Below, piece by piece: positions 10,011 through 64,000 of a stretch of DNA of 64,000 nucleotides; position 1 is the first letter of the stretch, and every line of letters starts with the position of its first letter. Source of the DNA: an uncultured Candidatus Saccharibacteria bacterium (GTDB lineage Bacteria; Patescibacteriota; Minisyncoccia; Phycocordibacterales; DATDWN01). Where the stretch lies: assembly GCA_964608465.1 (NCBI GenBank), contig CAZSNI010000002.1, forward strand, positions 23,273 through 87,272, given 5' to 3'. The notes beneath the pieces were generated by a model. It made no database searches and was not told the DNA's origin. It was given only the letters and a program-made list of their open reading frames with translations. The position numbers and the translations under genes were made by a program.

Positions 10011-10076
10011 CAATAGACATAAACATTTTCCTTTTATAAACTAGTACGGGTTGTACACAAAACAGGAGTGAGTCGA

Positions 10077-10337
10077 ATGAACGATATCCCAGGAGAGAAG
10101 ACTCAGGGTGGTGAGGAAGCGGCACCACTTCAAGGTGAGAAGGTGGTGAGGCGTCTCCCGCAAGAGATGAATGGAGCCACAATCGAAACTATCGTCGAGA
10201 TAGTGGCGCGGAACACCCAACAATCCGTCACTTGGAGGGTCGTTGACGGTGAACCTACGGTTTTCACCACCGGCGACGTGTACGCTGTTCTGCGGGAGCT
10301 TCGGCACAAGCTTCCTCGCGAATATCGGCGAACATAG
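10077..10337 (+). CDS. GC-rich cassette A, ORF A1: hypothetical 86-aa protein
   Basis: ACAGGAG SD 8 nt before ATG 10077 (the ORF track starts at GTG 10068). G/C-ending codons contrast with the flanks. Confidence 0.55.
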   Translation: MNDIPGEKTQGGEEAAPLQGEKVVRRLPQEMNGATIETIVEIVARNTQQSVTWRVVDGEPTVFTTGDVYAVLRELRHKLPREYRRT

Positions 10338-10399
10338 ACGCTCCGACAATTTTTTCAGCCTCGATGCTACGTGCATCGGGGCTGTCGCTTTATAAACTA

Positions 10400-10427
10400 T
10401 TGACAGGAGAAATAATCGGTATATCAT
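10400..10427 (+). promoter_or_regulatory. Sigma70-type promoter of ORF A2
   Basis: TTGACA (10400-10405), 16 nt, TATCAT (10422-10427). Confidence 0.55.
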
Positions 10428-10457
10428 TTTTATGGGGTAACACAGGAGGGTAACGAT

Positions 10458-10700
10458 ATGTTTCGTGATGCGGATGTACGTCGTTCAGTCGCAAATGAGA
10501 TGTCAGTTCTCGCAATGCAGGGTCTTTCAACTTCGGATGCCGTTACTTTCGGCAACCGTAGTGCTCGACTCGCCATCGCAAGGACTGAAATCTGGAGTGG
10601 CGGAAGGGGTAACGGAACCCTGAACGTCGATCTCGACTGCACGGGGTGCATGCTCGTGAGTACGTGTCCTGGGGACAAATGTCCCCGTAAGGACTGCTAG
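10458..10700 (+). CDS. GC-rich cassette A, ORF A2: hypothetical 80-aa protein with Cys-rich C-terminus
   Basis: ACAGGAGGG SD 7 nt before the ATG. C-terminal sequence LDCTGCMLVSTCPGDKCPRKDC. Terminator follows. Confidence 0.55.
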   Translation: MFRDADVRRSVANEMSVLAMQGLSTSDAVTFGNRSARLAIARTEIWSGGRGNGTLNVDLDCTGCMLVSTCPGDKCPRKDC

Positions 10701-10719
10701 CTAGTCCGATTTTCGTTTT
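10691..10719 (+). terminator. Terminator of cassette A
   Basis: GGACT-GCTAGCT-AGTCC hairpin overlapping the A2 stop, then GATTTTCGTTTT. Confidence 0.55.
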
Positions 10720-10816
10720 CCGTGTTGGATGTTCCGTAAGTGTGATTAGGCGCGCTATCCCAGGCGTGCCTTCACTTTGCCCAAAATTTTTGCGAAAAAA
10801 CTTTTTTAAGAATAGA

Positions 10817-11305
10817 ATGAAATATATGTGGGAAAGAAATTTTACTAAATGGGTGGGGTCTAGAACTTCGGTTGTGTTACACACAATTTTTTTTCTCGCT
10901 ACATTCTCAATGATTTTGTTTGGCTTTAATACTGAGACTGTTTTACTCATACTTACCACCGTTGTTTCTCTTGAGGCAATTTATCTTTCTATTTTTATAC
11001 AGATGACAGTAAATCAGAACACAGAAAGTCTAGAAATAGTCGAGGAAGATCTGGAAGATATCGTAGAGGAAGTCGGGGAGATTTCAGAAGATATTGACGA
11101 GATTCAGCATGATGTGGATGAAATTCAGGAAGATGTTGAAGAGATTTCGGAAGATGTGGAGGAGATTCAGCACGATGTGGATGAAATTCAGGAAGACGGT
11201 GAGCAGGAGGATATTGAATCAAAAAAAGATAATCAGAAACTTGAAAATATTGAAATCATTTTGAAGAAGTTAATTGTGGAGATAGAAAACTTAAAGAAGA
11301 AATAA
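10817..11305 (+). CDS. DUF1003-like two-TM membrane protein with acidic repeat tail (162 aa from ATG 10817)
   Basis: WVGSRTSVVLHTIFF...VVSLEAIYLSIFIQMTVNQ resembles the DUF1003 core. The upstream part of track ORF 10742 lies in cassette A terminator DNA. Confidence 0.55.
   Translation: MKYMWERNFTKWVGSRTSVVLHTIFFLATFSMILFGFNTETVLLILTTVVSLEAIYLSIFIQMTVNQNTESLEIVEEDLEDIVEEVGEISEDIDEIQHDVDEIQEDVEEISEDVEEIQHDVDEIQEDGEQEDIESKKDNQKLENIEIILKKLIVEIENLKKK
11099..11200 (+). repeat. In-frame 63-nt tandem repeat (about 1.6 copies) encoding EIQHDVDEIQEDVEEISEDVE
   Basis: GAGATTCAGCATGATGTGGATGAAATTCAGGAAGA at 11099 recurs at 11162 with 1 mismatch in 35 nt. Confidence 0.8.
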
Positions 11306-11331
11306 ATTATATAGTTTGATATAATTTCAGA

Positions 11332-12168
11332 ATGAAAATTGTAAAAAAAGTTTTTCTTTCTCTGCTAGCAGTAATTATTTTGTTTGTTTTCTGGCAAGTT
11401 ACAAAAAAAGTTCCATTGGAGGGTGATTGGAAACAGCATTTAGATATTATTTCAAAGGCAGAGTTTAATGGCGACAAAGTAACAGTAAAGAATGTCAGAA
11501 ACTACCGCTATGGCCCTACAGAAGCAGATATGCATCCTGCATATTATGACAGAACTTATGACCTGAACGGCGTCAAAAAAATCTGGTACGTTACTGAACC
11601 TTTCAATGAGAATCAAATGGCGGCGCATACTTTTGTTTCATTTGAGTTTGATAATGGAGATTTTCTTGCGATAAGTATTGAAGCTAGAAAAACTAAATCT
11701 CAAGAATACAGTATTTGGAAAGGCGCAATGCGTACATATCCACTTGTGTATGTAGCTGCGGATGAAAGAGACGTCGTGCTTTTGCGCGCAAACCTCAGAA
11801 AAGACCAAGTGTATGTGTATCCTATAAAACTATCTAAACCAGAGAACGCTAGGTTGCTTTTGGTTGATATGCTCACCACTATGAACGAGCTAACAACAAC
11901 AAAACCACAATGGTATAACACTTTGTTTGCAAATTGTACTTCGGCAATTGCAAAACATGTAAATAAATTAAGTCCAGATAGAATTTCTAAGTTCTCATGG
12001 CAACTTTGGCTCACAGCATCTGCAGATGAACTTGCACTAAAGTCAGGGCTAATAGATACGGATTTGAGCATAGAAGAAGCAAGAAAGATGTATAATATAA
12101 ATGTTGCGTCTGAAAAAGCAGGGGATGTAGCCACATACTCGCAAGACATTAGAAAATTTAAAAAATAA
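11332..12168 (+). CDS. Membrane-anchored protein, DUF4105-like (278 aa)
   Basis: N-terminal TM segment and a KVTVKNVRNYRY motif reminiscent of DUF4105/Lnb N-terminal domain. Family call is tentative. Confidence 0.5.
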   Translation: MKIVKKVFLSLLAVIILFVFWQVTKKVPLEGDWKQHLDIISKAEFNGDKVTVKNVRNYRYGPTEADMHPAYYDRTYDLNGVKKIWYVTEPFNENQMAAHTFVSFEFDNGDFLAISIEARKTKSQEYSIWKGAMRTYPLVYVAADERDVVLLRANLRKDQVYVYPIKLSKPENARLLLVDMLTTMNELTTTKPQWYNTLFANCTSAIAKHVNKLSPDRISKFSWQLWLTASADELALKSGLIDTDLSIEEARKMYNINVASEKAGDVATYSQDIRKFKK

Positions 12169-12170
12169 AT

Positions 12171-12599
12171 ATGATCAACGAAAAAACAATGAAATTTATT
12201 AGAATATTTCTTTTAGTTCTAATAATTATCGGTATCGGTTTACTTTTAACTCAGAATACTTGGGTTCCAAAACTTACGAACTATATTTTAAAAGACGAGT
12301 TGTTGGCAAATAACACAAAGACTGGCTCACGATGGACTGGAAAAATTGATTCAGTAAAAACAGATTGCATATTCGACGGTATTTGTAGTGTGACTGTTTC
12401 TGGGGTTGAAGTTGTGGTTGTGCAAGGCATGGTTGCTTTGCAGGAGGGTGAAGAGGTGGGACAGTTGCGAGATGTTGAGTCAGTTTCCGATATGCAAAAG
12501 TATATAGGTAAAGAAGCAAATGTTTTTGCTAGAAAAATAAGTAGTAATTTATTCACACTTTACGGTAATCAAGAATTTTTCATAGAGCTGAAGAAGTAG
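12171..12599 (+). CDS. Hypothetical membrane-anchored protein (142 aa)
   Basis: ORF with an N-terminal TM segment; terminator follows. Confidence 0.55.
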   Translation: MINEKTMKFIRIFLLVLIIIGIGLLLTQNTWVPKLTNYILKDELLANNTKTGSRWTGKIDSVKTDCIFDGICSVTVSGVEVVVVQGMVALQEGEEVGQLRDVESVSDMQKYIGKEANVFARKISSNLFTLYGNQEFFIELKK

Positions 12600-12647: not shown

Positions 12648-12677
12648 TTGACTTTTTCATTCTATATGTGATATAAT
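12648..12677 (+). promoter_or_regulatory. Promoter of cassette B with extended -10
   Basis: TTGACT (12648-12653), 18 nt, TGATATAAT (TGn + TATAAT at 12672-12677). Confidence 0.6.
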
Positions 12678-12683
12678 TCGCGC

Positions 12684-12842
12684 AGTAAGGAACATTGAAA
12701 ACACATATCGGAACCTCCAATCCTCCATACAGGTCAGCAGTTGCTGGCACAGATGGAGGAGGGGGGCAATCTGATGTTAAGCAACATTGGACTGATTCTT
12801 GTCAGAATCAGCTAATAAAAAACCCACCTCTAAACCAAAGGT
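12684..12842 (+). promoter_or_regulatory. Structured ~160-nt leader of cassette B with SD-sequestering hairpin and 13-codon uORF
   Basis: CCTCCAT (12722-12728) pairs with ATGGAGG (12753-12759), part of GGAGGAGGGGGG. uORF ATG 12774 to TAA 12815 encodes MLSNIGLILVRIS. Hairpin CTGATTCT-TGTC-AGAATCAG lies inside the uORF. Confidence 0.4.
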
Positions 12843-13022
12843 ATGAAAATACTTCGAGTCATCGGGTTAGGGATGCTTATCATCACATTGAAGTTCCTGA
12901 CCCCAAAGATTTTCTCTGGGATCGAGAATACCCTTCTGGTGTTCTTTGATTCCATGCAGACTGTGCTAGAAAGAACAAGCACGTCGCAAACTGCCGGATT
13001 CTTCCCTGGACTCCCGCAGTAA
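12843..13022 (+). CDS. GC-elevated cassette B ORF: 59-aa small membrane protein
   Basis: Own translation: MKILRVIGLGMLIITLKFLTPKIFSGIENTLLVFFDSMQTVLERTSTSQTAGFFPGLPQ. One codon below the ORF-track cutoff. SD is weak (AAAGG). Terminator lies 9 nt downstream. Confidence 0.4.
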   Translation: MKILRVIGLGMLIITLKFLTPKIFSGIENTLLVFFDSMQTVLERTSTSQTAGFFPGLPQ

Positions 13023-13030
13023 CCCAAAGC

Positions 13031-13068
13031 AACCGGACGCTCATGCGTTCGGTTATTTGTTTGTCTTT
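13031..13068 (+). terminator. Terminator of cassette B
   Basis: AACCGGACGC-TCAT-GCGTTCGGTT followed by ATTTGTTTGTCTTT. Confidence 0.65.
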
Positions 13069-15864: not shown

Positions 15865-15893
15865 TTGACAATCTAGTTTTAATATGATAGGGT
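15865..15893 (+). promoter_or_regulatory. Promoter of cassette C
   Basis: TTGACA (15865-15870), 17 nt, TAGGGT (15888-15893). The -10 element is weak. Confidence 0.4.
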
Positions 15894-15956
15894 TCTGTCA
15901 GAGTCACCAAGAATGGTGATGTCGATTCAGAGCCTAGAGGCTCATGGAGTGTTCAG

Positions 15957-16823
15957 ATGAAGATGTCCAGTTTCGTCATTGCGTTGGCCATGTTGGCTAC
16001 CGCAAGCGCCGCAAGCGCACAGTCGTCCGCGAAGATCGGTGACCTGGTTTCCGGAGTTCCGGTCGCTGGCGACCTCGTCGTCTGCAACTGGAACGGAAGC
16101 AACGTCGACGCCGACTACAAGATCGACAAGGCGGGTTCGCCCACCGTGTCGCTCCTCGTTTCGCCCAACACGTGCAAGAAGGCGGGCGAAGCTCCGACGC
16201 TCACGTTCGTCACCTTCACGGTGCAGAACATCGCGGCCGGACGGCAGGGGATGAGTCACCTCGCAACTGGCAACGGCCAGACGCAGGTCAACTTCCCCGG
16301 AAACGCTGTCTCGCTCACGATGAACTGCGCCAATGGCTTTCGGGTCATGGCGTCACACACCGTCACCGCGCTGACTGGTCCCGCCGGTCCGGCCGGCCCC
16401 CAGGGTCCGGCAGGTCCGACAGGCGCAACAGGTGCCACCGGTGCCACTGGCGCGAAAGGCGACCCGGGTGACGTTCTGACCTGGCCGACCATGGCTCCCG
16501 CATCCGTCGATTTGGGACTCCCGATGGTTCTTCCGAAGCCCTTGTCCCTGACCATTCCGAGACCGGAGGGCGTGCATGATCTGCTCTACTACTGGTCGCA
16601 GTACAGGGTGGCGATTCGTTGGAGCTTCAACCTCGATGGGTCAGTCAAGTGTCGACAGGTGGACTGGAGTTTTCATCCGGAACACGCCTTCGACACTCTC
16701 CAGGCCCTCACCATCGGTGTTCAGTGGTGGGACTCGAGTTCGGCGAAGGGTGGTCCCTGGCCGATTGCATGGAACGTCAACATTCCGTGCAACACTTCAC
16801 TCCTGACGCCAGGCAAGTACTAG
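15957..16823 (+). CDS. GC-rich cassette C ORF: secreted protein with collagen-like Gly-X-Y tract (288 aa)
   Basis: Signal peptide MKMSSFVIALAMLATASAASAQ. GPAGPAGPQGPAGPTGATGATGATGAKGDPGD is encoded at 16377-16472. GGAG lies 7 nt before the ATG. Hand count gives 39/60 GC at 16021-16080. Confidence 0.75.
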   Translation: MKMSSFVIALAMLATASAASAQSSAKIGDLVSGVPVAGDLVVCNWNGSNVDADYKIDKAGSPTVSLLVSPNTCKKAGEAPTLTFVTFTVQNIAAGRQGMSHLATGNGQTQVNFPGNAVSLTMNCANGFRVMASHTVTALTGPAGPAGPQGPAGPTGATGATGATGAKGDPGDVLTWPTMAPASVDLGLPMVLPKPLSLTIPRPEGVHDLLYYWSQYRVAIRWSFNLDGSVKCRQVDWSFHPEHAFDTLQALTIGVQWWDSSSAKGGPWPIAWNVNIPCNTSLLTPGKY

Positions 16824-16856
16824 CCTCGCGGCGCTCGCGCCGTTCGTTCATTCTTT

Positions 16857-16897
16857 CCGGCCCCGTGCAGCACATGCTGTAGGGGCCGGTTTTCTTT
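16857..16897 (+). terminator. Terminator of cassette C
   Basis: CCGGCCCC...GGGGCCGG 8-bp stem followed by TTTTCTTTT. Confidence 0.7.
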
Positions 16898-16925
16898 TAC
16901 ACAAAATATTTAGTATTATTAATAT

Positions 16926-17468
16926 ATGAATATCGAACTCAATCACATATTACTTTTTATTCATTTGGTTTCGCTTGTTATGGGATTTGGTGCAGTTATG
17001 GTTATAGATACATTTGGCCTGTTGTGGTTACTTAAAAAAGTAAAACTATCATTTGTTCAACAGGTGGCAAATACAACTCAACCTCTTATATGGATCGGAT
17101 GGTCACTACTTGTTTTAACCGGAATTCCTCTAATCGTTATGAAAGGTGGAGTGAGTGGACTTTCCATGATTAAAATATTTGCTGTACTTTTGCTTGGTGT
17201 GAATGGTGTATATTTGCACATAATTAAGAAGAGTATGGATAACATAAATGACAACTCTGTTATGCCTAGCTTGGCTAAATTCAGGATCACACTAGCTAGC
17301 TTTATTTCTCAGGCAGGATGGTGGACTGCAGTAGTAATTGGTTTTTTAAACAACAAACTAAAAGATAATGCTCCTAAAGTAGAGGACCCGTTTGTAATTA
17401 TAATTCCTGTCGTCATATTTGTTGTTTTTATTGCAACAGCTGGAGAATTGATTTTCCGAAAAAAATAA
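16926..17468 (+). CDS. Hypothetical polytopic membrane protein (180 aa)
   Basis: Four to five hydrophobic segments; host-like AT-rich codons. Confidence 0.6.
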   Translation: MNIELNHILLFIHLVSLVMGFGAVMVIDTFGLLWLLKKVKLSFVQQVANTTQPLIWIGWSLLVLTGIPLIVMKGGVSGLSMIKIFAVLLLGVNGVYLHIIKKSMDNINDNSVMPSLAKFRITLASFISQAGWWTAVVIGFLNNKLKDNAPKVEDPFVIIIPVVIFVVFIATAGELIFRKK

Positions 17469-17483: not shown

Positions 17484-18482
17484 ATGAAATTATCCATAGG
17501 AATTGTTGGTCTTCCAAACGTCGGCAAATCGACGCTTTTTAATGCACTTACAAAAAAATCTGTTCCTGCAGAAAACTATCCATTCTGTACTATTGATCCC
17601 TCTGTAGGGATTGTTCCAGTTCCAGATGAGAGAGTGCAAAAACTTTCAGACTTTTCTAAATCAGCAAAAACTATTCCAGCAGTAATTGAGTTTGTTGATA
17701 TTGCAGGTCTGGTTAAAGGAGCTTCAGCAGGTGAAGGACTTGGAAACAAGTTTTTGTCTAATATTCGTGAAGTAGATGCAATACTAGAGATGGTAAGAGT
17801 GTTTGAAGACAAAGATATTTTGCATGTACACGGGGAAGTGAATCCGCTCTCTGACATTGATGTTATAAACTATGAGCTAATTTTGGCTGATTCAGAAACT
17901 ATCACAAAAAGAATCAGTAATTTGGGTAGAGAAGTAAAACAAGGGAAGAAAGAAGCAGTTTTTGAAAATGAAGTTTTAGAAAAAATTCTAGAAACACTGA
18001 AAACAGGAAAGCTGGCAAATACTCTTGCGTTGACTCCAGAAGAGAATGAAGTATTGAAAAGTATGCATTTGCTTACAGCAAAGCCAATTTTGTATGCACT
18101 CAATACTTCAGAAGCTAGTGTAAACAAACTAGATGTTGCTTCACAGGTTCCAGGACCATATGTGGTTATAGACCCTGTGTTCGAAAAGGGTTTTGAAGAT
18201 TTGATCAAAAAAGCTTATGAAACTTTGGGACTTATTACATATTTTACAACCGGAGAGGACGAAACAAGAGCATGGACTATTGAAAAAGGTTGGACAGCAC
18301 CGCTAGCAGGAACAGCGATACACACAGACTTTAAGGATAAGTTTATTCGTGCAGAAGTTGTTCACTGTGACGACTTACTAGATTCTGGCTCATACGGAGT
18401 AGCGAGAGAGAAGGGGAAGGTGAGAACTGAAGGAAAGGAATACATTGTTAAAGATGGAGATGTAATTGAGTTTAGAATTTAA
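17484..18482 (+). CDS. ychF: Redox-regulated ATPase YchF (Obg-family GTPase-like), 332 aa
   Basis: G1 motif GIVGLPNVGKSTLFNALT, FCTIDP, and DIAGLVKGAS. Confidence 0.85.
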   Translation: MKLSIGIVGLPNVGKSTLFNALTKKSVPAENYPFCTIDPSVGIVPVPDERVQKLSDFSKSAKTIPAVIEFVDIAGLVKGASAGEGLGNKFLSNIREVDAILEMVRVFEDKDILHVHGEVNPLSDIDVINYELILADSETITKRISNLGREVKQGKKEAVFENEVLEKILETLKTGKLANTLALTPEENEVLKSMHLLTAKPILYALNTSEASVNKLDVASQVPGPYVVIDPVFEKGFEDLIKKAYETLGLITYFTTGEDETRAWTIEKGWTAPLAGTAIHTDFKDKFIRAEVVHCDDLLDSGSYGVAREKGKVRTEGKEYIVKDGDVIEFRI

Positions 18483-18494
18483 TCCAAAGACTAC

Positions 18495-18523
18495 TTGACA
18501 GTTATTAAATATTAGTGTATACA
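18495..18523 (+). promoter_or_regulatory. Promoter of cassette D
   Basis: TTGACA (18495-18500), 17 nt, TATACA (18518-18523). Confidence 0.55.
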
Positions 18524-18543
18524 CAGACACAGGAGGATCATCG

Positions 18544-18828
18544 ATGGAAAGAACGTTTCCGATTTACTGGGACGCGGCAGTGTGTCACGTCTCCGACCCC
18601 AACAACCCGCACGTCGTCGGGAAGGGCGGCAGCATCGAAGCCGCAACAGGCGACCTGTACATTCAGATGTACGGAATCACGTTCAAAGACGTTACACCGT
18701 ACACACCGCTCGGTGACAACATCCCCGGAATTCTCGCCATCAAACAGCGGGAAAATGAAGAAGGTCAGGAGTTGCCTCCGTTGACGGTTCGGTACGGCGA
18801 TGAAGTCGAAGAAGAAGTCGCGGCCTAA
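18544..18828 (+). CDS. GC-rich cassette D ORF: hypothetical 94-aa acidic protein
   Basis: ACAGGAGGA SD 7 nt before the ATG. Hand count gives 38/60 GC at 18561-18620. G/C-ending codons. Confidence 0.6.
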   Translation: MERTFPIYWDAAVCHVSDPNNPHVVGKGGSIEAATGDLYIQMYGITFKDVTPYTPLGDNIPGILAIKQRENEEGQELPPLTVRYGDEVEEEVAA

Positions 18829-18843
18829 CTAAAGGTCGTGAAT

Positions 18844-18886
18844 GAGCCCAGCTATTTGTAGATTCAATCTATGAAAAGCTGGGCTC
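18844..18886 (+). terminator. Hairpin ending cassette D (no clear T-run)
   Basis: GAGCCCAGC (18844-18852) pairs with GCTGGGCTC (18878-18886) across a 25-nt loop. Confidence 0.4.
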
Positions 18887-18909
18887 TTAACGTATGCTAT
18901 AATTTAAAC

Positions 18910-41745: not shown

Positions 41746-41889
41746 TTACTCTTCGAAGACGGAGCTATGTTTTGTTACCAAACAAAACAAGCGAGTCGGG
41801 GTCGAGGAATTTTGTGAGCGACGGCGAACAAAATATCCGTGACAAACGATAAACAAAATCTCCTTGTCGTTCATTGGTCGAAACGATTT

Positions 41890-41926
41890 TCCAATACGAA
41901 GAAACCGCCATCGTGTAGACTGGCGG
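41890..41926 (-). terminator. Terminator-like hairpin after ORF E1
   Basis: On the minus strand: CCGCCA-GTCTACACGA-TGGCGG followed by TTTCTTCGTATT. Confidence 0.5.
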
Positions 41927-41952
41927 AATCTATCCGCCGTCACGGTGACGGT

Positions 41953-42084
41953 TTAGAGCAGTGTCCAGCATACGAGCAAGATCGCCACTCCGATTGAGAG
42001 TATTCGAGCCAGTTCTCCCGTGCTGGGCGGTGGTGAGTCGAGTATTGGTGCTTTTAACATCTCATCTCCATTGATGCTGAACAA
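41953..42084 (-). CDS. GC-rich cassette E ORF E1: 43-aa peptide (35 aa if ATG 42060) with hydrophobic C-terminus
   Basis: Own translation: MFSINGDEMLKAPILDSPPPSTGELARILSIGVAILLVCWTLL. AAAGGAG lies 5 nt before TTG 42084, and GGAG lies 5 nt before the in-frame ATG 42060. Confidence 0.4.
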   Translation of the reverse strand: MFSINGDEMLKAPILDSPPPSTGELARILSIGVAILLVCWTLL

Positions 42085-42099
42085 GTGTACTCCTTTTAA

Positions 42100-42129
42100 T
42101 ATTTTGCACACTATAACTCACTCTGTCAA
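42100..42129 (-). promoter_or_regulatory. Promoter of cassette E (minus strand)
   Basis: Minus strand TTGACA (42129-42124), 18 nt, CAAAAT (42105-42100). It sits back-to-back with the grpE promoter. Confidence 0.4.
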
Positions 42130-45032: not shown

Positions 45033-45062
45033 AGCCCGCGGGAGCGTGCTCCATCACGGGCT
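45033..45062. terminator. GC-rich hairpin between the dnaK stop and the end of cassette F
   Basis: AGCCCG...CGGGCT outer stem with inner GGAGC-GT-GCTCC. T-run is poor on both strands. Confidence 0.4.
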
Positions 45063-45092
45063 GAATATGTACCCTTGAAAACAGTTGCCGAA

Positions 45093-45359
45093 CTAGAGAC
45101 CAGCCTCTTTCCGGGCTATGTACCACGCGTTATCGTGCGGGAACTTGTTCTGACGCCGCATCTGGAAGTAAAGACGTCTTGCGACATCCAGGCGGTCGCG
45201 ACGAATGATCTTCCGCACGGTGTAGTCGCAGGCGGGACACTTTGCCTCGATGAGCCTGGCTTCGGGAACTTCCGAAGGTGTGTTGGTTGCAGACGTTCGA
45301 CTAGAAACATCGAAGGCAAAACGGCAGTTCGGGCAATCAAATCGCATAGCTTTCATCAT
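45093..45359 (-). CDS. GC-rich cassette F ORF F2: 88-aa zinc-ribbon protein
   Basis: MMKAMRFDCPNCRF...AKCPACDY (CxxC...CxxC). The ATG overlaps the F1 stop (ATGA). GAGGAAG SD upstream. Confidence 0.6.
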   Translation of the reverse strand: MMKAMRFDCPNCRFAFDVSSRTSATNTPSEVPEARLIEAKCPACDYTVRKIIRRDRLDVARRLYFQMRRQNKFPHDNAWYIARKEAGL

Positions 45360-45688
45360 CTTCCTCTCTGTTTGAGACGAACCATCATCTTGGCGAAACC
45401 CAGTGACTCCAAGGGCCCTTTGCCTGAGGCGAGAGCCTCTGCAACATGAGCCCTCATTGCCCTACGATCATCCACACGAGCGGGCAACTGCTGTCTGTGC
45501 TGAGCGATGATGGTCGCACCACAGAATTCAGACTGGCATTTGACCCTAACGATGATCGTCAGGATACCAAGCATGTAGTCTCTGTCCTCGTGCAGTTCTG
45601 TAACATCTCGCTCGGCGAGCAACGTGGTCCGGCACCTCTCGCAGTGGAGCTGAATGGGGAAGCTCAAACTTGCAAGTTGCTGATACAC
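45356..45688 (-). CDS. GC-rich cassette F ORF F1: ~110-aa zinc-ribbon protein
   Basis: AGGAG lies 7 nt before GTG 45688 (track ORF starts at TTG 45724). Cys pattern HCERCR...KCQSEFC. Confidence 0.55.
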   Translation of the reverse strand: MYQQLASLSFPIQLHCERCRTTLLAERDVTELHEDRDYMLGILTIIVRVKCQSEFCGATIIAQHRQQLPARVDDRRAMRAHVAEALASGKGPLESLGFAKMMVRLKQRGR

Positions 45689-45735
45689 AGCCTGGCTCCT
45701 AGAATAAGGGTTTGACGGAAACAAATTCCACTCTT

Positions 45736-45764
45736 AGACTACATTATTGTCAATATCTGGTCAA
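45736..45764 (-). promoter_or_regulatory. Promoter of cassette F (minus strand)
   Basis: Minus strand TTGACC (45764-45759), 17 nt, TAGTCT (45741-45736). Confidence 0.4.
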
Positions 45765-47782: not shown

Positions 47783-47812
47783 CCCCGCCCAAAGACTAGT
47801 CTTTGGGCGGGG
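47783..47812 (-). terminator. Terminator of cassette G (perfect 14-bp palindrome containing the stop codon)
   Basis: CCCCGCCCAAAGAC-TA-GTCTTTGGGCGGGG. On the minus strand it is followed by GTTCGTTTTGT. Confidence 0.65.
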
Positions 47813-48128
47813 CAAACTCGTAGTTGACTGTGGACTCAGGACGTTCTGAGACGTACAAGAGTTTACAGGTGTTGATGATACCGATAGCGCGTTCGACATA
47901 CGAAGCACCATCAAGTTCACCGTAAATACCAAGCCACTCGGGTCGAAAAAAATGACAGAGCCTATTGAAGAGTTTTTCATCGCTTCTGCAGTACTCGATT
48001 TGATTCAGAGCAATCATTTCGAGTTCATCCTTGGCTCTGTGGTGATCGTGCGCAGACCTCCAGTTCAAGTCGCTGATGAGGTGGTCTAATGACCTGCGCA
48101 TGAACATGATGTTCGAATCGAAATACAT
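47796..48128 (-). CDS. GC-rich cassette G ORF: hypothetical ~110-aa protein (start uncertain, up to 48182)
   Basis: 128-codon open frame. First ATG is at 48128 and no convincing SD is present. G/C-ending codons. Promoter and terminator bracket it. Confidence 0.5.
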   Translation of the reverse strand: MYFDSNIMFMRRSLDHLISDLNWRSAHDHHRAKDELEMIALNQIEYCRSDEKLFNRLCHFFRPEWLGIYGELDGASYVERAIGIINTCKLLYVSERPESTVNYEFAPPKD

Positions 48129-48210
48129 GATGTTGCAAATTTTCCAAAATGCCAATTTCAGAGTCCTCCATAGAAGGGCCAAAAAGAGGTAAAATCCAAG
48201 TCCATTGTTC

Positions 48211-48238
48211 AGTATAGTTATTTTGAAATCTATATCAA
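48211..48238 (-). promoter_or_regulatory. Promoter of cassette G (minus strand)
   Basis: Minus strand TTGATA (48238-48233), 16 nt, TATACT (48216-48211). Confidence 0.5.
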
Positions 48239-56965: not shown

Positions 56966-56995
56966 TTGACTATCTGACATTTATTGTGTTATTAT
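56966..56995 (+). promoter_or_regulatory. Promoter of cassette H with extended -10
   Basis: TTGACT (56966-56971), 18 nt, TGTTATTAT (TGn + TATTAT at 56990-56995). Confidence 0.55.
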
Positions 56996-57012
56996 GCTGT
57001 TGGAGTAACAGC

Positions 57013-57153
57013 ATGAAAAGCGACATTAAAGCAGGGATTTTTATCGTTCTGGTAGTGATCAGTTTCCAGCTTGCGTACATCGCATCGGACCTCAACAAGA
57101 TCGTCGGGATGATGAAGTCTGGGCAGGCACAACAAACCACTTCGCAGAAGTAG
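57013..57153 (+). CDS. GC-rich cassette H ORF H1: 46-aa single-TM peptide
   Basis: Own translation: MKSDIKAGIFIVLVVISFQLAYIASDLNKIVGMMKSGQAQQTTSQK. GGAG lies in the loop of hairpin GCTGT-TGGAGTA-ACAGC, 7 nt before the ATG. Confidence 0.5.
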   Translation: MKSDIKAGIFIVLVVISFQLAYIASDLNKIVGMMKSGQAQQTTSQK

Positions 57154-57161
57154 GAGGGCAG

Positions 57162-57437
57162 ATGGGACTCGTGAGTCTGAATCCGCTCCTCATGGAGCCA
57201 GGACGTAAGAACATGGGACTTCGGGTCCTGTGCGCGCTTCTCAGCCTGGTTCTTCCGGGCGTCGTGCTCTACTTCGTGCCAGTTCTACTGTACGGGGTTG
57301 TGGCTCTCGGAATGCTCGTCGCCATGCTGACATACAGCTGGCTGGCTGGCATCGTAGCGCTTCCGGTGATTTATCTCTCGTTCACTACAGTCACCTGGAT
57401 GATGCTCCAATTTCTCATGAAGAAGTACAAGCTCTAG
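57162..57437 (+). CDS. GC-rich cassette H ORF H2: 91-aa three-TM membrane protein
   Basis: TAGGAGGG SD (overlapping the H1 stop) 3-4 nt before the ATG. Hydrophobic segments LRVLCALLSLVLPGVVLYFVPVLLYGVVALGMLVAML... Confidence 0.6.
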   Translation: MGLVSLNPLLMEPGRKNMGLRVLCALLSLVLPGVVLYFVPVLLYGVVALGMLVAMLTYSWLAGIVALPVIYLSFTTVTWMMLQFLMKKYKL

Positions 57438-57451
57438 TAGCTGTACTCCTC

Positions 57452-57500
57452 GGTCGATACGATCAGGTCCCACAGACCATCGTGTCGGCCTTTTCGTTTA
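57452..57500 (+). terminator. Terminator of cassette H
   Basis: GGTCGATACGAT (57452-57463) pairs with ATCGTGTCGGCC (57479-57490) with two G-U pairs, then TTTTCGTTT. Confidence 0.6.
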
Positions 57501-59000: not shown

Positions 59001-59149
59001 TTATACGTATTATATATCAAATTTCTTTCTCACCATAACTTTTCTGGAAACAGAATAATTTTCTGGTGAAAATTTTCTTCGCGCTCAGCTTTTCACAGCT
59101 TCCGCGATGTTCCATAAAAATTATGATTCAACGAAATTTTCGTAACACT

Positions 59150-59269
59150 ACCTTTTCTGAGACCCCGCAGACCCAAAGCTTGGTTCCGTCAAGGCATTCC
59201 ATCTTGACGGATTTGGGTTGAGGACAAAGTGAACGAAACGCAGGCGTAGTGAACGGTCTTAGAAAAGGT
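59150..59269 (+). ncRNA. 120-nt nested-helix element inside the unusually long scpA-scpB spacer (strand uncertain)
   Basis: 15-bp closing helix ACCTTTTCTGAGACC (59150-59164) / GGTCTTAGAAAAGGT (59255-59269). Inner helices are ACCCAAA/TTTGGGT (59171-77/59212-18) and CCGTCAAG/CTTGACGG (59186-93/59203-10). Confidence 0.4.
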
Positions 59270-59283
59270 ATGTGTGGAGGAAA

Positions 59284-60064: not shown

Positions 60065-60093
60065 TTGACATTATATGATTTGTATAGTAGTAT
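60065..60093 (+). promoter_or_regulatory. Promoter of cassette J1
   Basis: TTGACA (60065-60070), 17 nt, TAGTAT (60088-60093). Same register relative to the conserved leader as the J2 promoter. Confidence 0.55.
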
Positions 60094-60102
60094 TATTTCA
60101 AA

Positions 60103-60162
60103 GGTAGACCTGTGTACCTATATTCACCGGTCGTCCGAAAAGACGAAAAACTTGGAGTGGCG
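60103..60162 (+). promoter_or_regulatory. Conserved 5' leader, copy 1 (J1)
   Basis: GGTAGACCTGTGTACCTATATTCACCGGTCGTCCGAAAAGACGAAAAACTTGGAG is about 44/54 identical by eye to 60706-60759. Confidence 0.6.
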
Positions 60163-60570
60163 ATGTTTAACATGGATCAGATGGTTCCTGTAGTGGCACT
60201 CGTGATCATAACGAGCCTCGTTACGTGGATCGTGAGCACTTCTCTGGCAAAGCGTCGGGCAGAACAGCAGTCTGGCACCGACAACAAGCTGAAAGAGCGA
60301 AAGGTCTACGAGATCACCACGCTCAGACAGATACGTTGGAAGTTCTACGCTCTCACCGCTTGGAGCGATAACTTGCTAGCCTATGAGACGTCAGACGACA
60401 ACGCGAGTTACCTCAGAGTAGTGAACTCGAAAGGTGACGTACTCAGTAGTGTAACGTGTGATGCACGGCAGGAAGCGATCACTGTTCTGAACCATCCCGG
60501 CCAAGACTTCCGAGCCTTCCACATTCGATCCGTGGAAGATGTCGTTAGGTTCTTGGTCTTTGGAGAGTAA
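60163..60570 (+). CDS. GC-rich cassette J1 ORF: 135-aa N-terminally anchored protein
   Basis: GGAG lies 5 nt before ATG 60163 (track ORF starts at GTG 60112 inside the leader). TM segment VPVVALVIITSLVTWIV, then a ~100-aa soluble part. Confidence 0.6.
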   Translation: MFNMDQMVPVVALVIITSLVTWIVSTSLAKRRAEQQSGTDNKLKERKVYEITTLRQIRWKFYALTAWSDNLLAYETSDDNASYLRVVNSKGDVLSSVTCDARQEAITVLNHPGQDFRAFHIRSVEDVVRFLVFGE

Positions 60571-60588
60571 GACCTCCCCCACCACCGC

Positions 60589-60637
60589 CCCGACGGGTTG
60601 CGCACAGCAACTCGTCGGGTGTTTTTTATACCAAAGT
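60589..60637 (+). terminator. Terminator of J1 (conserved module)
   Basis: CCCGACG-G-GTTGC-GCACA-GCAAC-T-CGTCGGG followed by TGTTTTTT. The block 60580-60625 is 45/46 identical to 61248-61293. Confidence 0.75.
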
Positions 60638-60667
60638 TTTATATTAATATTAGCACTTTGACAAACA

Positions 60668-60696
60668 ACCTATTTTATGATATACTTTAATAAGTG
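60668..60696 (+). promoter_or_regulatory. Promoter of cassette J2
   Basis: TTGACA (60668-60673), 17 nt, TATACT (60691-60696). Confidence 0.65.
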
Positions 60697-60705
60697 GTAA
60701 ACCGG

Positions 60706-60757
60706 TGTACCCTCATTCATCGGTCGTCTGTAAAGACGCAAAACTAGGAGAACTGAA
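60706..60757 (+). promoter_or_regulatory. Conserved 5' leader, copy 2 (J2)
   Basis: GGTAAACCGGTGTACCCTCATTCATCGGTCGTCTGTAAAGACGCAAAACTAGGAG, which aligns with the J1 leader. Confidence 0.6.
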
Positions 60758-61240
60758 ATGGTTAGCTTCAATGAATCGCAGTGGGTCGTGGTGATCGGGC
60801 TCCTCTTCATCACCTTCATCGCAGCCTGGACTATGTCCATGCACTTCGAGAGGGCTAGAGAGGTGCGCCGCAAGATGGAACTTGAAGCCAGTCGCAAGAA
60901 AAATGAGGAGGTCGAAGATCTTCTCGAAAAGAAGCGGCGCAGAAGGATCGATCACGAAATCAACACCCTCGGCCAACTGGCAAACCTGATCGCGAAGGTA
61001 AAGGTCTCACGCCTCAGCACCGAATCATGGCCAAGTGACGGCAAGCTTGCAGGCAAAAGCCATATTCGCCTTATCTACAAAGGAACCCTCGCCTGCAAAA
61101 TATTCTGTGACGCTGAATTGAAAAAGCTCATAGTACTTGACCAGGTAGTGGGCGGCATGAGTGAATGTGACATCGATCAGGCTCCTCGGGCCGTAGACCT
61201 GGCTCTACAGAAGCTGAGCGACTGGGACTATCTCCTCTAG
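60758..61240 (+). CDS. GC-rich cassette J2 ORF: 160-aa N-terminally anchored protein
   Basis: TAGGAG SD 7 nt before the ATG. TM segment WVVVIGLLFITFIAAW, a charged coiled segment, then a soluble part. No similarity to J1 seen by eye. Confidence 0.65.
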   Translation: MVSFNESQWVVVIGLLFITFIAAWTMSMHFERAREVRRKMELEASRKKNEEVEDLLEKKRRRRIDHEINTLGQLANLIAKVKVSRLSTESWPSDGKLAGKSHIRLIYKGTLACKIFCDAELKKLIVLDQVVGGMSECDIDQAPRAVDLALQKLSDWDYLL

Positions 61241-61256
61241 ATTTCAGCACCATCGC

Positions 61257-61297
61257 CCCGACGGGTTGCGCACAGCAACTCGTCGGGTGTTTTATTT
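61257..61297 (+). terminator. Terminator of J2 (conserved module), convergent with the GNAT gene
   Basis: Same CCCGACGGGTTGCGCACAGCAACTCGTCGGG hairpin followed by TGTTTTATTTT. Confidence 0.75.
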
Positions 61298-61836: not shown

Positions 61837-61837
61837 T

Positions 61838-63232
61838 CTATTTCTTCAAAGTTTTTATATTCAACTCAAGTAGTTGCTCGTCTGAAATCTCAGATGGAGA
61901 ATCCATCATAGGATCCTTACCTTCCCCTGTTTTAGCAAAAGGAATAACTTCTCGAATGTTTGGTTCGTTTTGAAGTAGCATAACTAGTCTATCTAGCCCC
62001 CACGCAATACCTCCATGTGGTGGAGTTCCTAGTGAAAAGGCAGAAAGCATGTGACCAAAGTTTGCCTTGATACCTTCGATACTGTGACCCATAACTTCAA
62101 ATACTTTTTCTAGAGCTTTTGGATCGTGGTTTCTTATACTTCCTCCTCCGATTTCAAATCCGTTTAAAGCAACATCATATTGTGTAGTTAGTATTTCACC
62201 AATGTTCTCTTTTTTCATTAGCCACTCAACATGTTCTGGTTTTGGTCGTGAAAAAGGGTTGTGTGTAAATGTCCATGCTCCAGTGTCAGTTTTCTCAAAG
62301 AAAGGAAAATCTATCACCCAACAGAATGCTAACAAGTTTGGATCTGTTTTGTCTTCTCGTAAGTCTGGCTTGTCGTTGCCATATTTCTCCATTGCTTCTG
62401 CATATGTAAGTCGTGGGAATGGAACGGTCTGGATTTTCTTTTCAGGATAAAGTTTTGTTACAAGTTCAATAAGAAGTCTCTCGTTTAGCTCCATTACATC
62501 CTCTCTTTGTACAAAAGAGAGTTCCATATCTAACTGTGTAAACTCTGGCTGTCTGTCTCCACGAGTATCTTCGTCACGCATACATCGGGCAATCTGGAAG
62601 TATCTCTCAACACCCGCTGTCATCAGTAGTTGTTTGTACTGCTGTGGTGACTGTGGAAGCGCGTAAAACTTTCCTGGGTAAAGTCTAGCTGGAACAACGT
62701 AATCTCGAGAACCTTCTGGAGTAGATTTTGTTAGCATAGGAGTTTCCACCTCGATAAAGTTTTCTGAGTCTAGAAAATCTCTAATGTATTTTATTATTTT
62801 GTGTCTGACACGAATATTTTTCTGCATTCTGTCAGAACGTAAGTCAACGTATCTGTATTTTAGTCTTACTTCTTCGTTGATTTCTTTTGTGTCTCCTGAA
62901 ATATCAAAAGGAATAGTATCTGACTTGTTTAAAACTTCTATACCAGTTATCTCTAGTTCAATATCGCCGTTTAGCACTCCAGCTTTTACGTTTCTTTCTG
63001 GTCTTTTGTTTACTATTCCAGTAACAGCCAAAACCCACTCAGTTCTAACTTCTTTTACTGCCTCAATAGCTTCAGTGTGGTTTGGAAGTACAACTCCCTG
63101 GACCTTGCCAGACATATCTCGCATATCCATAAAAACCATTTTCCCTTGGTCTCGACGAACATCCACCCAGCCTTTAATTACGACCTCCTGCCCTACGTTT
63201 TGCGCCAAATCCTTTATATAAGTTCTTTTCAT
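61838..63232 (-). CDS. aspS: Aspartate--tRNA ligase, bacterial-type core without the GAD insertion (464 aa)
   Basis: FYALPQSPQQYKQLLM, YFQIARCMRDEDTRGDRQPEFTQLDMELSF, and GGGSIRNH. Confidence 0.85.
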   Translation of the reverse strand: MKRTYIKDLAQNVGQEVVIKGWVDVRRDQGKMVFMDMRDMSGKVQGVVLPNHTEAIEAVKEVRTEWVLAVTGIVNKRPERNVKAGVLNGDIELEITGIEVLNKSDTIPFDISGDTKEINEEVRLKYRYVDLRSDRMQKNIRVRHKIIKYIRDFLDSENFIEVETPMLTKSTPEGSRDYVVPARLYPGKFYALPQSPQQYKQLLMTAGVERYFQIARCMRDEDTRGDRQPEFTQLDMELSFVQREDVMELNERLLIELVTKLYPEKKIQTVPFPRLTYAEAMEKYGNDKPDLREDKTDPNLLAFCWVIDFPFFEKTDTGAWTFTHNPFSRPKPEHVEWLMKKENIGEILTTQYDVALNGFEIGGGSIRNHDPKALEKVFEVMGHSIEGIKANFGHMLSAFSLGTPPHGGIAWGLDRLVMLLQNEPNIREVIPFAKTGEGKDPMMDSPSEISDEQLLELNIKTLKK

Positions 63233-63251
63233 AAAAAAAATATATCATAAG

Positions 63252-63280
63252 TTGTCAAAATTATCTATAAAACATATACT
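63252..63280 (+). promoter_or_regulatory. Promoter of cassette K
   Basis: TTGTCA (63252-63257), 17 nt, TATACT (63275-63280). Confidence 0.55.
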
Positions 63281-63297
63281 GCCTTCGGAGGCCTCAC

Positions 63298-63495
63298 ATG
63301 AACCCCGACCTGCGTTTTGTCCCTCGGACTGATGTAAAGACTATCGAGGTATTCGTCGAAGAAGCGTACCTCGCAGACATAACCAAGGACGGCCAAAACT
63401 TCACAATCAACAATATCGCCCTGACAACTGAAGATATAGAGGCGATATTGGAAAAGATGAAGGAGTTAAAAAGACTAAAAGAGGCCAAGAAGTGA
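63298..63495 (+). CDS. GC-rich cassette K ORF: hypothetical 65-aa protein
   Basis: GGAGG lies 6 nt before the ATG and sits partly inside hairpin GCCT-TCGG-AGGC. Acidic core with a KELKRLKEAKK tail. Confidence 0.55.
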   Translation: MNPDLRFVPRTDVKTIEVFVEEAYLADITKDGQNFTINNIALTTEDIEAILEKMKELKRLKEAKK

Positions 63496-63511
63496 AGCCC
63501 TGCAGGTCGAA

Positions 63512-63556
63512 CGCTCGGAAAGAAATCTCTCTTTGCCGGGCGATTTCTTATTTCTT
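63512..63556. terminator. Terminator shared by cassette K and the convergent methyltransferase gene
   Basis: CGCTCGGAAAG (63512-63522) pairs with CTTTGCCGGGCG (63531-63542) with one bulge, then ATTTCTTATTTCTT. Confidence 0.55.
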
Positions 63557-64000
63557 AAAACCATAACAAATCTGCAGTTCTTCCTCCAAAACAAACTCCT
63601 GTCTATCACCAAGCTTACTAGTCATTATTTTTGTTAGTTCAGTAGCAAAACTATCTTTTTCCGTACCACTTAATTTCCCGAACGCTGATGCAGTTTTCAT
63701 AAGTCCGACATATTCTTCAACATTGTATTTTACAACTGTAGGAATTCTATGAGTATCCGCCCCTTCAAGTTCGTGATCCATAAAAAATTCTGATATGTAT
63801 TCTAAATCTCTTAACTCATTAGGAACTTTTTCCCAATTATATTTCGATAGAAAATCCCAAGGAATCGAGTCCTCGTCAGGAACATCCTTCACTGTTAGAG
63901 TCCAGAATACAAATAGCGTTCCTCTTGGTTTTAGCACTCTTTTAATTTCATCGATTGACTGTTTATTTACAAACCAATGAAATGCAGTCCCAACAGTTAC
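63548..64000 (-). CDS. Class I SAM-dependent methyltransferase, C-terminal part (gene continues past window end)
   Basis: Own translation of 64000-63938 extends the track ORF upstream: VTVGTAFHWFVNKQSIDEIKRVLKPRGTLFVF (post-motif II/III region of the Methyltransf_11-type fold). Confidence 0.65.
   Translation of the reverse strand, partial: VTVGTAFHWFVNKQSIDEIKRVLKPRGTLFVFWTLTVKDVPDEDSIPWDFLSKYNWEKVPNELRDLEYISEFFMDHELEGADTHRIPTVVKYNVEEYVGLMKTASAFGKLSGTEKDSFATELTKIMTSKLGDRQEFVLEEELQICYGFKK

Follow-up and report, generated by a model that had tools for sequence, protein, structure and literature searches.

In a 64-kb stretch of genome from an uncultured Candidatus Saccharibacteria bacterium (64,000 nucleotides, nt; GenBank:CAZSNI010000002.1, positions 23,273 to 87,272; hereafter the window, to which all window statistics refer), the gaps between housekeeping genes carry short islands of high G+C content (GC), each of which is predicted to be an autonomous transcription unit, here called a cassette, consisting of a promoter, a short and sometimes structured leader, a Shine-Dalgarno (SD) sequence, one or two small open reading frames (ORFs) and an intrinsic terminator. 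Judged from orthologues at saturating divergence, GC-richness appears to be a stable property of the transcription unit and not the fading mark of an import; because it persists over long evolutionary time, the cassettes are not simply fresh high-GC acquisitions. The islands are probably resident, lineage-specific and fast-evolving accessory cassettes that are exchanged by recombination, with a GC that is actively maintained or continually renewed.

GC-rich units in the gaps between housekeeping genes

A sequence-only reading of the window had pointed to at least ten GC-rich cassettes and listed eleven islands, and calculation of GC and of the G+C content at third codon positions (GC3) for each of them bore this out. 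Mean GC was 0.379 in the window and 0.364 outside the islands, and 400-nt windows of host DNA averaged 0.366 (standard deviation 0.028, n = 1072) with a maximum of 0.4475, which was exceeded by 11 of 11 islands, at 0.455-0.613 (A, 0.523; B, 0.455; C, 0.613; D, 0.534; E, 0.470; F, 0.539; G, 0.461; H, 0.523; J1, 0.517; J2, 0.518; K, 0.471). The accompanying hand counts of 39/60, 38/60 and one of 21/60 were exact, but positions 17001-17060 contained 17/60, not 21/60. A density of about one island per 5 kb had also been proposed, and here the distribution proved not to be uniform: the islands fall into three groups, at 10-19 kb, at 41.7-48.2 kb and at 57-63.6 kb. All 10 host intergenic gaps of at least 400 nt contained an island, including a 1220-nt gap with G; K occupied a 315-nt gap, and the 9 other gaps of at least 100 nt were 116-390 nt long with a GC of 0.28-0.40.

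GC3 was likewise not uniform between islands and flanks, being 0.53-0.75 in the cassette ORFs of the window versus 0.295 ± 0.036 in host ORFs (maximum 0.358, n = 45). At four-fold degenerate sites, G+C amounted to 60% in cassettes (A 0.17, C 0.34, G 0.27, T 0.22) versus 19% in host genes (A 0.39, C 0.08, G 0.11, T 0.42), and the amino-acid usage of cassettes was shifted likewise, with K, I, F, Y and N down and A, R, P, C and M up. The predicted units and their ORFs (product lengths in amino acids, aa; TM, transmembrane) are as follows.

Cassette A1, 10043..10384, + strand: weak promoter-like site at 10014-10042, AGGAG SD, hairpin at 10356-10384
A1 ORF, 10077-10337, + strand: 86 aa; family members P0128 and P0132
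Cassette A2, 10400..10769, + strand: TTGACA-16-TATCAT promoter (10400-10427), AGGAGG SD, hairpin at 10748-10769
A2 ORF, 10458-10700, + strand: 80 aa, Cys-rich C-terminus
Cassette B, 12648..13054, + strand: TTGACT-18-TATAAT promoter (12648-12677), long leader, terminator at 13031-13054
B1 ORF, 12843-13022, + strand: 59 aa, one TM helix
Cassette C, 15865..16899, + strand: TTGACA-17-TAGGGT promoter (15865-15893), terminator at 16857-16889 with T-run
C ORF, 15957-16823, + strand: 288 aa; signal peptide, N-terminal domain, collagen G-x-y repeats, C-terminal domain
Cassette D, 18495..18886, + strand: TTGACA-17-TATACA promoter (18495-18523), AGGAGG SD, terminator at 18844-18886
D ORF, 18544-18828, + strand: 94 aa
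Structured two-hairpin RNA-like element, 41760..41850, + strand: within island E, separate from the E1 cassette
Cassette E, 41885..42129, - strand: TTGACA-17-CAAAAT promoter (42129-42101), 3' hairpin and terminator module at about 41950-41885
E1 ORF, 42060-41953, - strand: 35 aa, C-terminal TM helix
Cassette F, bicistronic, 45034..45753, - strand: TTGACA-17-TGGAAT promoter (45753-45725), terminator at 45061-45034
F1 ORF, 45688-45356, - strand: 110 aa, CxxC...CxxxxC
F2 ORF, 45359-45093, - strand: 88 aa, zinc ribbon
Cassette G, 47783..48238, - strand: TTGATA-16-TATACT promoter (48238-48211), terminator at 47812-47783
G ORF, 48128-47796, - strand: 110 aa, SD not clear
Cassette H, bicistronic, 56966..57490, + strand: TTGACT-18-TATTAT promoter (56966-56995), terminator at 57452-57490
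H1 ORF, 57013-57153, + strand: 46 aa, TM helix
H2 ORF, 57162-57437, + strand: 91 aa, polytopic membrane protein
Cassette J1, 60065..60625, + strand: TTGACA-17-TAGTAT promoter (60065-60093), conserved structured leader at 60102-60162, terminator at 60589-60619
J1 ORF, 60163-60570, + strand: 135 aa, N-terminal TM anchor
Cassette J2, 60658..61293, + strand: TTGACA-17-TATACT promoter (60658-60686), leader at 60696-60757, terminator at 61257-61287
J2 ORF, 60758-61240, + strand: 160 aa, paralogue of J1 (26% aa identity)
Cassette K, 63252..63540, + strand: TTGTCA-17-TATACT promoter (63252-63280), terminator at 63514-63540
K ORF, 63298-63495, + strand: 65 aa, acidic

The proposal that these are autonomous units of alien composition, made up of promoter, SD, ORF and terminator, was supported by the position of the expression signals. 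Scanning the whole window for matches to at least 10 of the 12 sigma70 consensus positions gave 31 sites, of which 8 lay on the correct strand within 130 nt upstream of the first ORF of a cassette (0.38 expected; binomial P about 3e-9). C, D and F each have a perfect TTGACA with a weaker -10 box, and the best promoter-like site of A1 matches only 9 of 12 positions. Every unit closes, as had been described, with a strong G+C-rich hairpin, which in most cases leads into a T-rich tail; the tail of D is weak. When the units were aligned on the -10 box, mean GC was 0.22-0.30 across the promoter, 0.44-0.47 over the first 60 nt downstream and 0.50-0.56 thereafter; aligned on the terminator, it was 0.65 in the stem and 0.25 over the next 20 nt. 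GC thus rises abruptly in the 20 nt that follow the -10 box and drops again in the 20 nt beyond the terminator stem, so that the GC-rich domain coincides with the predicted transcription unit.

Comparison of A1 with its counterpart in a sister strain (L001; contigs and loci of relatives are numbered with L, homologous proteins with P) revealed that the 5' untranslated region, the terminator and the downstream promoter were identical, and that the ORF differed in 89 aligned columns including gaps. Substitutions at the three codon positions numbered 16, 18 and 44, one indel was an in-frame 9 nt, and the proteins were 61% identical; this pattern, together with the in-frame indel, indicates that the ORF is coding. 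The random substitution pattern that would have spoken against coding was accordingly not seen in A1, and protein families are conserved. Nine island ORFs were concatenated and run through HMMER in full against 1.84 billion representative proteins; the 22 matches were self or near-self sequences plus 1-4 distant relatives each for A1, A2, D, F1, G, J1, J2 and K, and the alignment of the J family shows conserved positions. A word-indexed search of 5.8 billion proteins with concatenated queries gave no matches, its prefilter probably dropping short distant relatives in a long query. On sequence grounds we regard the cassette ORFs as genuine genes.

As the sequence-only reading had stated, no product has a recognisable family: Pfam, PHROG, PADLOC and NCBIfam gave nothing above cut-off for the island ORFs. 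Pfam also found nothing in 10 alternative-frame island ORFs, which were searched with the idea of scrambled foreign genes in mind. An AlphaFold2 model of J2 (predicted local distance difference test, pLDDT, 84.6) consists of a TM helix, a long helix and a small alpha/beta domain, and it had no fold match in the PDB; the model of C, at a pLDDT of 30, was too poor to use. About half of the products are predicted to be envelope or secreted proteins, with C as a collagen-like fibre, J1 and J2 as TM-anchored proteins and B1, E1, H1 and H2 as small hydrophobic peptides, and the remainder would be small zinc-ribbon or acidic cytosolic proteins. For B1, E1 and H1 a type I toxin-antitoxin locus, in which a small hydrophobic toxin is paired with an overlapping antisense RNA, was considered; the three peptides are small and hydrophobic.

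The exact C protein was present on three independent contigs (GenBank:GCA_020049755.1, Logan SRR12762303 and Logan SRR12762304), one of which was 100% identical to the window across 8.9 kb spanning A, B and C, and another of which represented a strain 97.6% identical across 9.7 kb with the same junctions. The island junctions are genuine, since independent assemblies (L001-L003) and related species carry the same or orthologous cassettes. It was also noticed that no gene was called in island A of L001 and that wrong-strand ORFs were called there in L002. In L001, which is an NCBI assembly, a scaffold gap of 100 N (9668-9767) falls exactly at the site of cassette D (window 18470-18907), and this suggests strain polymorphism or a coverage break.

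Conservation of composition and turnover of slots

The window GrpE has its relatives in GTDB among metagenome-assembled genomes labelled Parcubacteria group, Zambryskibacteria, Paceibacteria or generic 'Saccharibacteria', the closest being 85% identical, and by these sequence relationships the host of the cassettes is a Parcubacteria-type bacterium of the candidate phyla radiation (CPR, Patescibacteria). Gene order is kept in relatives for 1) the ribosomal-protein operon, rpsI, grpE, dnaK, dnaJ and M23, 2) VanW, DUF948, YceG, flavodoxin, YchF, cupin, DUF5671 and LeuRS, and 3) aspS, GNAT, scpA, scpB, S11 and asnB.

Species pairs whose neighbouring gene is syntenic were used to compare divergence. 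Host neighbours had a protein identity of 68-92%, a synonymous divergence (dS) of 1.2-2.3 or undefined, and a GC3 of 0.17-0.35. For cassette orthologues the protein identity was 31-66% (79% for H2), the nonsynonymous divergence (dN) was 3-6 times that of the neighbours, dS was largely saturated (0.8-3.5 or undefined), and GC3 was 0.51-0.78 in both members of the pair. By family, GC3 across orthologues was 0.77/0.65/0.74 for C, 0.65/0.58 for J2, 0.63/0.75 for F1, 0.62/0.61 for F2, 0.66/0.63 for D, 0.70/0.73 for H2 and 0.58/0.51 for K. GC3 is thus alike within families and unlike between them, contrary to what stages of amelioration would give. The N-terminal half of C had a dS of 0.44 versus at least 1.4 in host genes, which points to exchange after speciation.

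Genomic context was available for nine contigs from eight distant relatives; P0127, P0129, P0130, P0132, P0133, P0137 and P0140 lie outside that set. In five contigs the same slot was occupied, by homologues of J2 (42%, L069, beside GNAT-aspS), of F1 and F2 (at dnaJ), of K (47%, L073, at aspS), of D (45%, L075, at cupin) and of G (L077). A J-type cassette in L070 and an A2-type cassette in L076 were at other loci, a J1 homologue (34%) was found on a 627-nt fragment (L079), by eye downstream of an opposite-strand scpA start, and L078 duplicates the G context. Eight of the nine contigs are AT-rich around the gene, and none of the nine is GC-rich outside the cassette.

Several families can be followed more closely. 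C has orthologues at the same locus in L004 (GC 0.56) and L014 (GC 0.59), and the B1 region is 73% nt-identical to L004 8000-8221, again at the same locus. D is absent from L004; in L075 the cupin gene is immediately preceded by P0142, a homologue with 45% identity to D and a GC3 of 0.60. The F1 and F2 orthologues (42% and 31%; GC3 0.75 and 0.62) adjoin dnaJ in L071/L072. The K family comprises P0130, P0133, P0138 and P0140, of which P0138 (47% to K) is directly beside aspS in L073/L074 with a GC3 of 0.51 versus 0.19-0.29 in the host genes there. The G family comprises P0127, P0129, P0137 and P0139, the last adjoining a homologue of the 47148-47606 gene in L077, and the relatives of A2 are P0126 (96%) and P0141 (43%), which adjoins tRNA genes on L076. 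Cassettes conserved at one locus with one composition, named beforehand as a sign of ancient genes, were found for C, D, F, J, K and H2, while patchy presence still shows gain and loss.

The sequence-only reading had placed the insertions in gaps that are normally compact, and synteny with relatives confirmed it: empty sites were found in L004, L015, L050 and L052, and cassettes are present or absent between relatives. The VanW/DUF948 gap is 3 nt in L004 versus the 805-nt island A in the window, and the YchF/cupin gap, the slot of D, is 134 nt in L004. The rpsI/grpE gap is about 70 nt in L015 and L023 (71 nt in L015), the dnaK/dnaJ gap 42 nt in L024, the GNAT/scpA gap 11 nt in L052, and the S11/asnB gap 154 nt in L050, whose ScpA is 96% identical, and 20-54 nt in L052, L058, L062 and L064. 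The H slot is empty in L050, L052, L058, L062 and L064.

Occupied slots differ as well. The dnaK/dnaJ gap holds the F1-F2 zinc-ribbon pair in the window and in L071/L072, and an unrelated family of 57-76 aa ORFs in L018, L020 and L021; the minus-strand ORFs of the rpsI/grpE gap differ among six species, and each precedes a conserved 3' hairpin/terminator module. L066 has an H2 orthologue (79% aa identity) and the same terminator, with a different ORF replacing H1. C is a mosaic, its N-terminal domain common to the window and L004 and its C-terminal domain to L004 and L014, with the collagen repeats as the junction. A slot can therefore be empty or hold a fast-evolving orthologue, an unrelated ORF or a mosaic in different species, and the accessory content of the rpsI/grpE, dnaK/dnaJ, S11/asnB and GNAT/scpA slots differs between genomes, as defines a core-genome hot spot of horizontal gene transfer (HGT). 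ORFs with a GC3 at least 0.2 above the local median numbered 10 in the 64 kb of the window, 5 in L004, 4 in L021 and 3 each in L068, L073 and L020, and there were none in most of the more distant Parcubacteria loci. The earlier statement that the islands share no att-like flank or target duplication also stood, the only repeats among islands being the terminators of J1 and J2.

Origin of the cassettes and possible maintenance of their composition

The islands had been taken for serial acquisitions from a foreign high-GC donor, and this part of the sequence-only reading did not hold. A single acquisition per cassette from such an organism, e.g. the host of an episymbiont, with amelioration incomplete, would fit a composition that departs strongly from that of the recipient in each of the three codon positions and in the choice of amino acids, and also presence and absence that vary among relatives, and an ADK-family kinase in cassette format in L004, which would be helpful for tracing origins, indicates that recognisable enzymes can occur in this form. 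However, no donor homologues were found in the 1.84 billion representatives or in alternative island frames, five of the seven placeable distant members occupy the corresponding slot in an AT-rich relative, both species of a pair keep a GC3 of 0.51-0.78 despite saturated synonymous sites, and GC is family-specific and similar between orthologues, which together make a foreign donor improbable. The search for donor taxa returned 22 matches, 1-4 per ORF, with no large donor family, and a high-GC donor signature was rejected as a candidate, there being no homologues in a donor lineage of matching composition and no compositional decay with age except for G in L077.

Recurrent re-seeding, in which the families live on an unsampled GC-rich replicon (phage, plasmid or partner) and replace the chromosomal copies via conserved ends, would account for a stable GC with no special force needed. 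A1, the N-terminal half of C, H and the domains of C show replacement via conserved ends, and one family can be found at different loci (J-type in L070, A2-type in L076). Against it stand the distant-relative contigs, 0 of 9 being GC-rich outside the cassette, and the searches of viral sequence: tblastn of the cassettes against 50,697 phage records gave no match, nor did searches of IMG/VR contigs with the C family, F1 and the J-leader pattern. Moreover, compared with their hosts, phages and plasmids usually have a higher A+T content (cf. PMC6519830) and are not 15-25 points GC-richer. We regard this explanation as unlikely.

GC-biased gene conversion, with cassettes as recombination hot spots at which biased mismatch repair raises G+C and accelerates protein change, has in its favour the clear signs of recombination at cassettes, the joint occurrence of fast evolution and high GC, and a needed population-scaled bias of only about 2. 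It is nevertheless very improbable, as the GC borders are step-like at the -10 box and the terminator, the homologous flanks, which are expected most often in heteroduplex, show no GC rise, and alleles with 33% divergence cannot pair base by base within the ORF. Hardly credible is the remaining proposal, that the islands are non-genic, i.e. structured non-coding RNAs of an AT-rich genome or assembly chimeras. Part of island E is indeed structured, with compensatory changes, the J leader is a conserved structured 5' untranslated region, and GC-rich DNA yields long chance ORFs in several frames; but Rfam was empty for all islands, coding is supported by the codon-position signal, by indels that keep the frame and by the conservation of protein families, the product of C bears both a signal peptide and collagen repeats, and the same junctions recur in independent assemblies and species. 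The non-genic explanation is thus largely refuted, and a structured-RNA island was rejected, only the sub-element of E and the J leader behaving as RNA structures.

For the resident, recombining cassettes that we favour, sequence patterns suggest that alleles and modules would be swapped by homologous recombination via conserved flanks, leaders, terminators or internal repeats. The products would probably act at the cell surface, in contact with a host or in conflict, and be subject to diversifying or frequency-dependent selection. As to the composition, our preferred guess is a weak per-site advantage of G/C over the whole transcript, for which more stable or more structured short mRNAs may be one basis; by our own calculation a population-scaled per-site bias of about 2 suffices to move the G+C content of four-fold degenerate sites (GC4) from 0.19 to 0.60. 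The main alternative would be continual replacement from an unsampled GC-rich gene pool.

Several points weigh against this explanation. The promoters and terminators are consensus matches only. The products are without a database match above cut-off or a fold match. The folding z-scores of ORFs are only slightly lower in cassettes (mean -1.8) than in host segments (-1.0), and thus give no strong indication that RNA structure is under selection over and above the effect of composition; such selection was considered as the cause of high GC and is not evident. Cassette mRNAs fold about 50% more stably per nt owing to composition alone. The G homologue in L077 is host-like, with a GC3 of 0.35, and an annotated 64-aa ORF of L004 that overlaps the B1-matching stretch has a GC3 of 0.32. 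Same-locus orthologues could be independent replacements and not the result of vertical descent, which would weaken the argument from stationarity, and each family was compared on only 2-6 sequences.

More tentatively, and with rather less than even confidence, this Parcubacteria clade may hold two compositional equilibria in one small genome, with a GC4 of about 0.6 in fast-evolving accessory units and about 0.2 elsewhere and the border at the transcription start and the terminator. If so, it would imply 1) a transcript-bounded force favouring G/C, e.g. selection on short mRNAs, 2) transcription-coupled GC-biased repair or mutation, or 3) fixed expression slots (promoter, leader and terminator) with ORFs renewed from a hidden GC-rich pool. 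None of the three is a described system. Composition is commonly used to date or detect gene transfer, and an alien GC that survives saturating divergence would break the amelioration clock; the cassettes would then be a natural system for what sets local G+C in bacteria. CPR/Patescibacteria have tiny genomes and an obscure host-interaction machinery, and a renewable set of genes that lie in core-gene gaps, have strong promoters and encode secreted, membrane and zinc-ribbon proteins provides candidates for factors of interaction or conflict. Some of the cassette genes are overlooked by standard gene callers, and public CPR genomes therefore probably annotate too few of them. The literature searched (PMC12455944 included) contained no account of such a pattern.

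Structured RNAs, known systems and single cassettes

Island E, which had been listed as one island, is composite, holding the plus-strand element at 41760-41850 as well as the minus-strand cassette of 35 codons. About 90 nt long and immediately downstream of the rpsI terminator, this element matches the corresponding locus of L018 (9709-9834) at 90% identity, and L004 has two copies of it near tRNA-Ala, at 5355-5459 (+) and 4945-5039 (-). Compensatory changes were found in 9 of 31 predicted pairs, G-U pairs favour the plus strand, and Rfam gave no match; the element is a candidate small RNA or mobile hairpin element. With Rfam (gathering and permissive E-value thresholds) and ARAGORN, only tRNA-Ala was detected, and there was no match in any island. 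The 3' hairpin/terminator module of E itself is kept in L016, L017, L020, L021 and L022, by eye with compensating stem changes.

In J1 and J2, whose proteins have diverged to the extent listed above, the 60-nt leader is about 85% and the 46-nt terminator region 98% identical. Leaders of this type were located in the window (60102-60162 and 60696-60757), L069 (206-268), L070 (314-376) and L079 (119-181). The J2 orthologue of L069, in the J/GNAT/aspS locus, has a protein identity of 42% with an identical structured leader core and, by eye, compensating changes in the terminator stem; the J1 orthologue of L079 (P0136) has a protein identity of 34% with a near-identical leader and terminator; and in L070 the leader varies. 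The leader is compatible with a possible small pseudoknot (GGUR/YACC and ACCNGUG/CAYNGGU), after which a CGUC/GACG hairpin precedes the SD. In five sequences, 2 of 15 pairs had compensatory changes, which was equalled in 17 of 500 shuffles, and the predicted structure is thus suggestive only. The leader could be a cis-regulatory RNA of a new type. A covariance model of it matched J cassettes only and none of the other cassettes, so that the conserved ends are family-specific and not a universal recombination site.

Phage morons, described by Hendrix and colleagues, are autonomous promoter-ORF-terminator units between conserved phage genes. The likeness to morons that had been proposed is borne out in architecture, as both have their own promoter, a small ORF and an intrinsic terminator, lie between conserved neighbours that are left undisrupted, are off-composition, and are present or absent among relatives. 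The cassettes differ in that they sit in a cellular housekeeping chromosome, with core cellular genes as neighbours (rpsI, grpE, dnaK, dnaJ, ychF, aspS, scpAB), have no PHROG matches except to collagen repeats and no phage or viral matches, and stay in place for long with their composition maintained. Oliveira et al. (2017) reportedly described chromosomal HGT hot spots between core genes. With such hot spots or islets the cassettes share the concentration of accessory content in few core-gene intervals and turnover via homologous flanks, whereas they are single-gene units of 0.3-1 kb with their own expression signals and without integrases or mobility genes, keep leaders and terminators while the ORF changes, and are GC-richer than the host in all cases.

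Integron cassettes are similarly small single-ORF units with an imperfect terminal hairpin and a variable ORF at a fixed position. Here, in contrast, each unit has its own promoter, the units are scattered and lack intI, attI or a shared attC consensus, and the 3' hairpins, with T-runs and G-U pairs, resemble RNA terminators; no integrase family was matched among the window ORFs scanned, the scan covering part of the ORFs. C alone resembles collagen-like fibres (Scl, Lcl, BclA) and phage tail fibres, with a signal peptide, a G-x-y segment, a variable globular end and domains exchanged across the repeat; it differs in that only its repeat scores (Pfam 24 bits, NCBIfam 19-23 bits, all below cut-off), in that it has no LPXTG or other anchor motif, and in that its end domains have no known relatives. 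Mouse Fxy in the pseudoautosomal region is an island of GC-biased conversion. It shares with the cassettes a sharp local rise in GC3 and accelerated protein evolution in a GC-poorer genome, whereas the cassette borders follow the transcription unit and not recombination tracts, and the flanks are unaffected. A diversity-generating retroelement target was also considered and is disfavoured, the substitution spectrum of A1 not being adenine-specific (G>A 18, C>T 11, A>G 11) and no matching repeat occurring in the window; no reverse transcriptase was seen among the ORFs scanned in the 64 kb of the genome that were available.

Single units gave some further observations. A2 and its 43% homologue P0141 have in common a Cys-rich C-terminal motif, LDCT.C....CPGDKCPR, behind a Gly-rich stretch, which recalls a modified-peptide or bacteriocin precursor, and the A2-type cassette of L076 is directly followed by another promoter and GC-rich ORF. 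In the leader of B, of about 160 nt (12684-12842), a strong GGAGGAGGGGGG SD precedes a 13-codon mini-ORF (12774-12815) upstream of B1, an arrangement that may represent a leader peptide or attenuation; the leader is not conserved in L004, whereas B1 is. The scpA/scpB gap (59001-59283, 283 nt) has a GC-richer part at 59132-59283 (GC 0.47) with a hairpin at 59185-59211; this gap is 23-490 nt in relatives and may be a further variable slot, absent from the initial list of islands. In L004, the ADK/AAA_17-family kinase gene mentioned above (2386-3093; GC 0.49, GC3 0.52, host GC3 about 0.20) has a TTGACT-17-TATAAT promoter, a GGAGG SD and a terminator, and thus combines the cassette architecture with a recognisable enzyme family.

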